Shown here: positions 28,494-29,720 of the stretch, in pieces
Layout of the letters: each line of letters opens with the position of its first letter
Position numbering within the stretch: position 1 is the first letter of the stretch
DNA from: Escherichia phage S127 BCL3
Direction: 5' to 3' (one strand)
Sequence record: OQ626344
Length of the DNA: 64,000 bases
The notes under the pieces: model-generated
The model's input: only the letters and a program-made list of their open reading frames with translations
Database searches by the model: none
Told to the model about the DNA's origin: nothing
Position numbers and translations under genes: made by a program

Positions 28494-29720
28494 TTAAAAA
28501 GGAATGTCATCATCAAAGGCGTATTGTGCTGGATTCTGATCCATAGGGTCATCTTCCTCATTATCTACAGGAGGGGCGTCTACAGTGTTTTGCTGTGGAT
28601 CAGTTTCCTGTTTGGCAGCTTGAGGTTCTTGATGGTCAGTGGCTCCCGCACCGTTCTTGATCCAATCATACAACGGTTCAGCAAGATTAGTCAAGACATC
28701 TTTTGCTTCTGCAGTAATTGCTACTGCAAAATCGTCAACTTTCGTTTTCTTGTCAATACGGCGACAAGCGTTCAATACCGCATTACCAACACTGGCACCT
28801 ACTTCATCTTCAGTTCGGTTGGTGGCTTGAGCGTACTCTTTCTTAAGCTCAATGGTGACAACGTGTAGTGTTTTAGCCACGTCTAAAGGATTGTCTACCT
28901 TAAACCCGCGATCCAGGATGATTTGCAAAGCATTAATGCTATGCCCTGTTTCTACACCGATAGGATCATAAGAAGATTTACGCTTACCACCAGAGCCTTG
29001 AGTGCCGTTCTCTGCCTTGGGTGGGTAGGCTTTAAAACCGCTGATAATATTCCCGGTGTCTTTGTCAACAATAGCTGCAACACGACCACCTACCACCAGG
29101 TCTTTAAGCTGCTCATCAGAGACAACCATAGCACCTTCGCCAATCTTGTGATCATTGACAGTAACCACGTTACCAACAATCTGAGTCACATCACCATAGA
29201 TGCGTAAAACGTCCTGATTGGCATTCTGCTGAGGTTTCTGCTTCTGGCCTTGTGATTGTGTGCCTTGTTGCTGTTTTTGTTGCTGTGGAGCTGCTGGAGC
29301 CTCTCCTGCCCCCAACTTAACCATTTTAGCCAGTGAGCCTTTGTAGTAGGTCTTACCGTTATGCTCATTTGCCTTTAAAGGGATATTTACGATCCATCCT
29401 GGCGTTACTGTTTCCCACTTGTCATCAATTTTAACAGAGACGGAGTCTTGATGACCAGGCTTAAGCAGCTTATCACCCATGCTGATCCAAACTTCTTCAC
29501 CACCTTGGAGCAGGTTATCAGAGGAGTCCAGTTCAGAAATCAGTAAAGAGATGGTGTGGCTGGATTCAATTTTCTTACCTTGCCACACAGTGGTTTTAAT
29601 ACCTGTTGTAGGATCAGCACCTTTAATGGGCTTGATGCTAACACGTTTAATCATACCGTGAGCCAGTAAAACAGTTTCACGCGGATTCATCGGGTTGGCA
29701 AATTGTTGAATAACGCTCAT
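28494..29720 (-). CDS. SSB-like protein with a bacterial SSB C-terminal tip (DDDIPF), 408 aa
   Basis: ATG at 29720 with SD AAGGAGA, a TAATG junction with the upstream gene (the track's 457-aa form overlaps it). Gln-rich linker, acidic tail ...AQYAFDDDIPF identical to the E. coli SSB tip. Sits next to the replication genes. The OB fold was not verified. Confidence 0.6.
   Translation of the reverse strand: MSVIQQFANPMNPRETVLLAHGMIKRVSIKPIKGADPTTGIKTTVWQGKKIESSHTISLLISELDSSDNLLQGGEEVWISMGDKLLKPGHQDSVSVKIDDKWETVTPGWIVNIPLKANEHNGKTYYKGSLAKMVKLGAGEAPAAPQQQKQQQGTQSQGQKQKPQQNANQDVLRIYGDVTQIVGNVVTVNDHKIGEGAMVVSDEQLKDLVVGGRVAAIVDKDTGNIISGFKAYPPKAENGTQGSGGKRKSSYDPIGVETGHSINALQIILDRGFKVDNPLDVAKTLHVVTIELKKEYAQATNRTEDEVGASVGNAVLNACRRIDKKTKVDDFAVAITAEAKDVLTNLAEPLYDWIKNGAGATDHQEPQAAKQETDPQQNTVDAPPVDNEEDDPMDQNPAQYAFDDDIPF

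Follow-up and report, generated by a model that had tools for sequence, protein, structure and literature searches.

The 408-aa protein encoded on the minus strand at positions 28494-29720 of the window (the whole 64-kb stretch of phage DNA analysed here) is most likely the replicative ssDNA-binding protein (SSB) of this phage, with two predicted OB folds, a four-helix bundle and an acidic disordered tail that ends in exactly the tip of the host SSB. The identification as SSB-like and the tip are already known at the level of prediction, since an April 2026 preprint on the close ortholog Bas52_0087 proposes an SSB-like protein with a C-tip and a possible interplay with ExoI/SbcB (10.64898/2026.04.29.721553), so that the present result confirms and does not discover it.

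Results

Gene structure and replication context

The open reading frame and its translation define a complete coding sequence of 408 codons running from ATG to a TAA stop (28494-28496), in such a way that the coordinates proposed by a previous reading of the sequence alone (the sequence-only reading) were correct, the strand being the minus one; the plus-strand frame across 28494-29720 has stops throughout. The translated protein ends in ...NPAQYAFDDDIPF. The start codon is supported by a Shine-Dalgarno-like AAGGAG seen by direct reading of the sequence 7 nt 5' of the ATG (29728-29733, minus strand), by the 1-nt overlap of this ATG with the TAA of the upstream gene (TAATG), and by the conservation of M1 and the MSVI start in the homologs. 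At 16 nt past the stop codon, a terminator-like GC-rich hairpin (GCCCTGCCCGAAAGGGTGGGGC) is followed by a T-run (28447-28478, minus strand), and an identical second copy of the hairpin is found at 38601-38622. A tRNA scan of the 64-kb window found none.

The phage from which the window derives is an rV5-like Vequintavirus. The upstream gene, translationally coupled to that of the 408-aa protein, codes for a 121-aa protein of unknown function (29720-30085, minus strand, phrog_7310) and is conserved next to it in loci of the Vequintavirinae type, the pair being also present in L002, L003 and Bas52. Around 3.2 kb upstream lies the gene for a 925-aa family-A DNA polymerase (32909-35686, minus strand), identified through PF00476 with an E value of 9.5e-8 that is below the gathering score; the homologous polymerase is annotated as DNA polymerase in B9-1 and Bas52. 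It is preceded by a gene encoding a 692-aa DnaB-like primase/helicase (35745-37823, minus strand), supported by AAA_25 (E 1.2e-15), DnaB_C (E 3.3e-13) and the annotation in relatives. The order primase/helicase, family-A polymerase, a few small ORFs and then the 408-aa gene is kept in family members with only around 30% identity. The complete Bas52 genome contains its own replisome genes and no annotated SSB, and no further SSB was detected by annotation or by phmmer with E. coli SSB, T7 gp2.5 and T4 gp32 as the three queries. Alternatively, the phage could simply use the host SSB instead of one of its own.

Predicted domains and structural neighbours

The single-chain AF2 model contains a pair of OB folds, then a helical bundle and finally a tail predicted as disordered, with pLDDT values of 93-98 for each folded domain, and a second structure prediction gave the same topology. 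The lack of an OB fold, which the sequence-only reading had named as the result that would speak against it, was thus not what these models predict. Domain 1 (aa 1-139; 29304-29720, minus strand) is predicted to be all-beta and OB-like, with extended hairpins, and belongs to the family core. It is connected by a disordered linker (aa 140-169; 29214-29303, minus strand), recognised by its composition and by pLDDT values of 46-59 and 24-35 in the two predictions, to domain 2 (aa 170-236; 29013-29213, minus strand), a predicted minimal OB fold of the order b1-b2-b3-short helix-b4-b5. The Gln-rich stretch previously noticed in the middle of the protein, PQQQKQQQGTQSQGQKQKPQQN, corresponds to aa 145-166 of this linker, the length of which varies between homologs. 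Domain 2 is an accessory confined to a "long" subfamily, with an alignment occupancy of 0.33.

Domain 3 (aa 251-358; 28647-28970, minus strand) is a predicted four-helix bundle, with helices at 253-270, 278-300, 304-321 and 328-355 and pLDDT of 93-98. No other part of the family alignment is as well conserved, with an occupancy of 0.91 and a high conservation of D252 (82%), G259 (96%), H260 (72%), N263 (76%), G308 (96%) and G312 (99%). Both D252 and Y351, the sites altered in the Bas52 escape mutants described below, are present in this domain, for which a structure search of the PDB gave no specific neighbour.

The C-terminal tail (aa 359-408; 28497-28646, minus strand) has 14 D/E against 1 K/R in its 50 residues, with a net charge of -13 and pLDDT around 50, as anticipated for a long acidic and disordered region, and finishes with the SSB-Ct-like tip DDDIPF (aa 403-408; 28497-28514, minus strand). 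With E. coli SSB at 178 aa, the phage protein is around 2.3 times as long, indeed more than twice the length of its bacterial counterpart.

The best structural neighbours of both predicted OB folds were ssDNA-binding OB proteins, and the Foldseek lists from PDB and BFVD were weakly enriched in OB/SSB proteins, among them DUF2815, phage p2 SSB and Enc34 SSB. The matches were weak, with E values of 6.4e-3 for DUF2815 (BFVD), 0.068 for 4klk (DUF2815) and 0.26 for Enc34 5odj, and TM about 0.28. The top PDB matches also included the translation factors eIF5A, IF1 and eIF2alpha, at E values comparable with those obtained for SSBs.

Sequence relationships of the family

The protein matches the profile of phrog_4477, labelled "unknown function", along its full length (residues 1-408 against profile positions 1-393 of 393, E 2.6e-172). 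Short-form relatives match the same profile, and the family core is made up of domain 1, the bundle and the tail. A Pfam search of the 408-aa protein found no family, with only noise from PIN_9 and DCX2 at E of about 0.1-0.2, and PF00436 (SSB) was absent from it and from eight diverse family members. No match was found by phmmer against E. coli SSB, T7 gp2.5 and T4 gp32. The impression that the protein does not resemble canonical OB-fold SSB sequences was therefore right. A single-sequence search of PDB sequences gave nothing meaningful, and a profile built from 136 family sequences found no SSB among them; it retrieved only sub-threshold cold-shock proteins (E 0.7-1.7), which are compatible with an OB fold, yet do not constitute evidence by themselves. 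As judged by these searches, phrog_4477 is a phage-only family that has no recognisable sequence homology to bacterial SSB, T4 gp32 or T7 gp2.5. A family-profile scan of 185,579 species genomes produced a single match, in one MAG contig, and 250 cluster representatives of the family were found in metagenomes and phages.

Some short relatives, such as that of Mt1B1_P17, are labelled as SSB in their records. These labels are without support from an SSB body, because the alignment with the SSB PHROGs 18154 and 7364 is confined to the final ~45 residues, which form the tail, and these relatives carry no Pfam SSB domain.

Conservation and variation of the C-terminus

The protein and host SSB share their last seven residues, FDDDIPF, and the E. 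coli SSB-Ct is DDDIPF (PMC5872125, PMC3632105), in agreement with the exact coincidence first pointed out from the sequence. This tip is not there by chance, because [IVLM]PF forms the C-terminal end of 147 of the 203 family proteins and appears followed by a short extension in 19 more, P407 and F408 are each 96% conserved (136 sequences, with a mean column identity of 15%), and among the genuine ORFs of the window, as among those of the entire Bas52 genome, no other ends in such a tip. Certain family members share with E. coli SSB up to 11-13 terminal residues, for example ...EPPMDFDDDIPF.

Natural alleles of the tip exist, being DDSIPF with an endonuclease gene downstream in Bas51 and CDDIPF capped by 15 aa in Bas50, and both phages are viable. 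Inserted endonucleases are encoded in L002 (5244-5867) and in L005 (a 192-aa ORF). The 15-aa post-tip extension could have been regarded as the mere 5' end of an inserted homing-endonuclease cassette. This was rejected as a full explanation, because the extension also ends members without an endonuclease downstream (L003, L012 and L021) and the canonical SSBs of mEp235, mEp013 and Vibrio phage BT-1011. The tail plus extension occurs as a module on canonical SSBs that lambdoid and Vibrio phages encode within Erf/Exo recombination modules; the description in the HK620 Sak4/SSB paper does not include the post-tip extension. In Klebsiella phage K54lambda1.1.1, the tail query matched within an annotated "exonuclease", which was discarded as an artefact of frame and pseudogene annotation.

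Relation to the trigger of DRT10

The closest characterised relative is Bas52_0087 (QXV84166.1; MZ501102 75981-77207) of Escherichia phage RudolfGeigy, the trigger of the DRT10/UG17 defence system, with 96.8% identity over 100% of the length. It is the same gene, with the same genomic position and neighbours. The 13 differences in 408 residues fall mostly in the linker and the tail, one of them (A401S) immediately N-terminal of the tip, and D252, Y351 and FDDDIPF are common to both proteins. The AF2/Phold model of Bas52_0087 in the preprint shows OB1, OB2, a four-helix bundle and a disordered C-terminus with the C-tip (10.64898/2026.04.29.721553). In that work, Bas52_0087 was genetically required for DRT10 triggering during infection, the escape mutations D252V and Y351C mapped to it, and its wild-type form provided in trans led to stronger restriction by DRT10; overexpression of SbcB attenuated this restriction, and expression of Bas52_0087 alone did not affect the viability of E. 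coli (10.64898/2026.04.29.721553). The papers examined on DARNA, Retron-Eco2, Retron-Eco7 and retron-Kva2 do not concern the 408-aa protein.

Discussion

The sequence-only reading suggested an SSB-like protein that either hijacks the partners of host SSB or titrates them as a decoy. Its SSB-like part is supported by the two predicted OB folds with ssDNA-binding proteins as neighbours, by the location in a replication module and by the fact that no other SSB was found. Regarding the partners, contacts with the phage's own T7-type replisome, with its family-A polymerase and gp4-like primase/helicase, would explain the tip equally well as a hijack of host proteins; T7 gp2.5 employs its acidic tail with a terminal Phe in this manner. 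Against a replicative SSB, it can be noted that the bundle and not the OB folds is the most conserved part, and that neither sequence nor profile searches connected the protein significantly with a characterised SSB.

As a replicative SSB, the protein would bind ssDNA through conserved aromatic and basic residues of the N-terminal OB-like domain (W78, K97, W102, K123 and Y126), to which the second, minimal OB fold would contribute in the long subfamily. The bundle would mediate self-association, in such a way that several OB folds act together, as in dimerising SSBs with two OBs per chain. When DNA is not bound, the acidic tail, with the free carboxylate of DDDIPF, would fold back onto the DNA-binding surface, and coating of ssDNA would release it for the recruitment of partners. 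Likely partners encoded by the phage itself are its family-A polymerase and its DnaB-like primase/helicase, following the T7 gp2.5 paradigm, and proteins of the host SSB interactome such as exonuclease I are likely as well, because the tip is identical to that of the host. We infer ssDNA binding, oligomerisation and every one of these tail partners.

A role as recombination mediator or annealing factor, either with a RecO-like combination of OB and helical domains or with gp2.5-like annealing, and dedicated to recombination-dependent replication or repair and not to general ssDNA coating, appears unlikely. The weak gp2.5-like structural matches to DUF2815/Enc34 and the presence of the same tail and extension on SSBs of Erf/Exo recombination modules would fit such a role, but RecO binds SSB-Ct and does not carry one, the neighbouring genes encode a polymerase and a primase/helicase and no recombinase, and the exonuclease, EndoVII and ligase genes of the phage are located elsewhere in its genome, away from the 408-aa gene. 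Moreover, apart from host SSB, no SSB candidate was found on which a mediator could act.

A decoy, in which many copies of the host tip sequester ExoI, RecQ, PriA, chi, RecO and others and so keep them from host SSB or phage DNA, with ssDNA binding being dispensable or incidental, is quite improbable. It would account for the terminal FDDDIPF identical to the host tip (PMC5872125), for the up to 11-13 terminal residues that certain members share with the E. coli sequence, and for the modulation by SbcB/ExoI dosage of the DRT10 response triggered by the ortholog (10.64898/2026.04.29.721553). However, a pure decoy is weakly disfavoured because E. coli tolerates expression of the Bas52 ortholog alone without toxicity, whereas efficient titration of essential SSB partners would be expected to harm it. 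In addition, two well-conserved predicted OB folds and a conserved bundle far exceed what a decoy needs, the conserved synteny with phage polymerase and helicase points to a role at the replisome, and altered (DDSIPF) or capped tips persist in the viable Bas51 and Bas50.

A role outside DNA, as a scaffold or anti-defence factor with OB-like barrels for protein or RNA and the tip as a leftover or mimic, is very improbable: OB folds are functionally promiscuous in general, translation factors score like SSBs in Foldseek and the bundle has no known relative in the PDB by structure search, but strong purifying selection acts on the tip in spite of the great divergence of the family, the synteny with the replication module is conserved, and the defence triggered by the ortholog acts through ssDNA (cDNA) and ExoI.

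Within the replicative SSB assignment, a more speculative and less probable reading would make phrog_4477 a separate lineage of replicative SSBs restricted to phages, with sensing through the bundle, an exchangeable C-terminus and a homing site at the tip. Defence systems such as DRT10 may read the surface or the assembly state of the bundle rather than the OB folds. The C-terminal module might be exchanged between SSB bodies. It consists of a PPxDFDDDIPF tail, either bare or extended by a 15-aa AP[IV]GLQYG....[HY]AL cap that would bury the Phe carboxylate, and in both forms it is also found in lambdoid and Vibrio phages, on canonical OB SSBs unrelated to this family. At the stop codon, the DNA that encodes the tip (GATGATGACATTCCTTTTTAACATC) could be a homing site for genes of HNH/EndoVII-type endonucleases, the insertion of which would turn the tip into DDSIPF or into CDDIPF with the cap. 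In that case, the natural variants of the tip would tune both the binding of host partners and the triggering of defence.

Phages of the rV5-like group are common on E. coli, Salmonella and Klebsiella, and are used for biocontrol and therapy. The 408-aa gene is labelled "hypothetical protein" in almost all records listed, and the assignment as a probable SSB would fill an annotation gap in phages that have their own replisome, but for which the complete genome of Bas52 shows no annotated SSB. Bacterial defence is repeatedly triggered by phage SSBs, as for Retron-Eco8, DARNA, AbpAB and Hna, so the predicted architecture bears on how bacteria sense infection; the trigger of DRT10, being this very gene, stands beside those of other systems triggered by phage SSBs. 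A phage protein with the exact host SSB-Ct could also redirect host enzymes such as exonuclease I.

Comparison with known SSBs

We compared the 408-aa protein with characterised SSBs. With E. coli SSB (PF00436) it shares a predicted OB fold, low-complexity disordered segments rich in Gln/Pro, an acidic C-terminus with identical FDDDIPF, and a likely role in coating ssDNA at the replisome. Among the features of a canonical SSB it thus has the OB fold, as predicted, and the disordered acidic C-terminus ending in hydrophobic-Pro-Phe, and it lacks the PF00436 profile, its body having no detectable sequence homology. Whereas the bacterial protein has neither a second OB per chain nor a four-helix bundle, the phage protein has both predicted, its Gln-rich linker lies between the OB folds and not before the tip, and oligomerisation probably takes place through the bundle and not through OB-OB contacts.

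T7 gp2.5 works in a replisome of the same type, with a family-A polymerase and a DnaB-family primase/helicase, and both gp2.5 and the DUF2815/Enc34 ORF6 SSBs are, as the 408-aa protein, phage-specific and endowed with an acidic tail and a terminal Phe. The differences are that no sequence similarity to gp2.5 was found (phmmer), that structural scores were not significant, and that gp2.5 has one OB fold, no helical-bundle domain and a tip, ..DGDF, that differs from that of host SSB, whereas the tip of the 408-aa protein is identical to it. The terminal Phe of the acidic tail of gp2.5 is a partner-binding element (PMC10359462; DARNA preprint).

Finally, tandem OBs on one chain with a single C-terminal interaction tail are common to the predicted phage architecture, the SSBs of Deinococcus-Thermus and the eukaryotic and archaeal RPA. 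There is no sequence homology with them, and in the phage family the second OB is accessory, being confined to one subfamily (occupancy 0.33), and the OB folds are followed by the conserved four-helix bundle.

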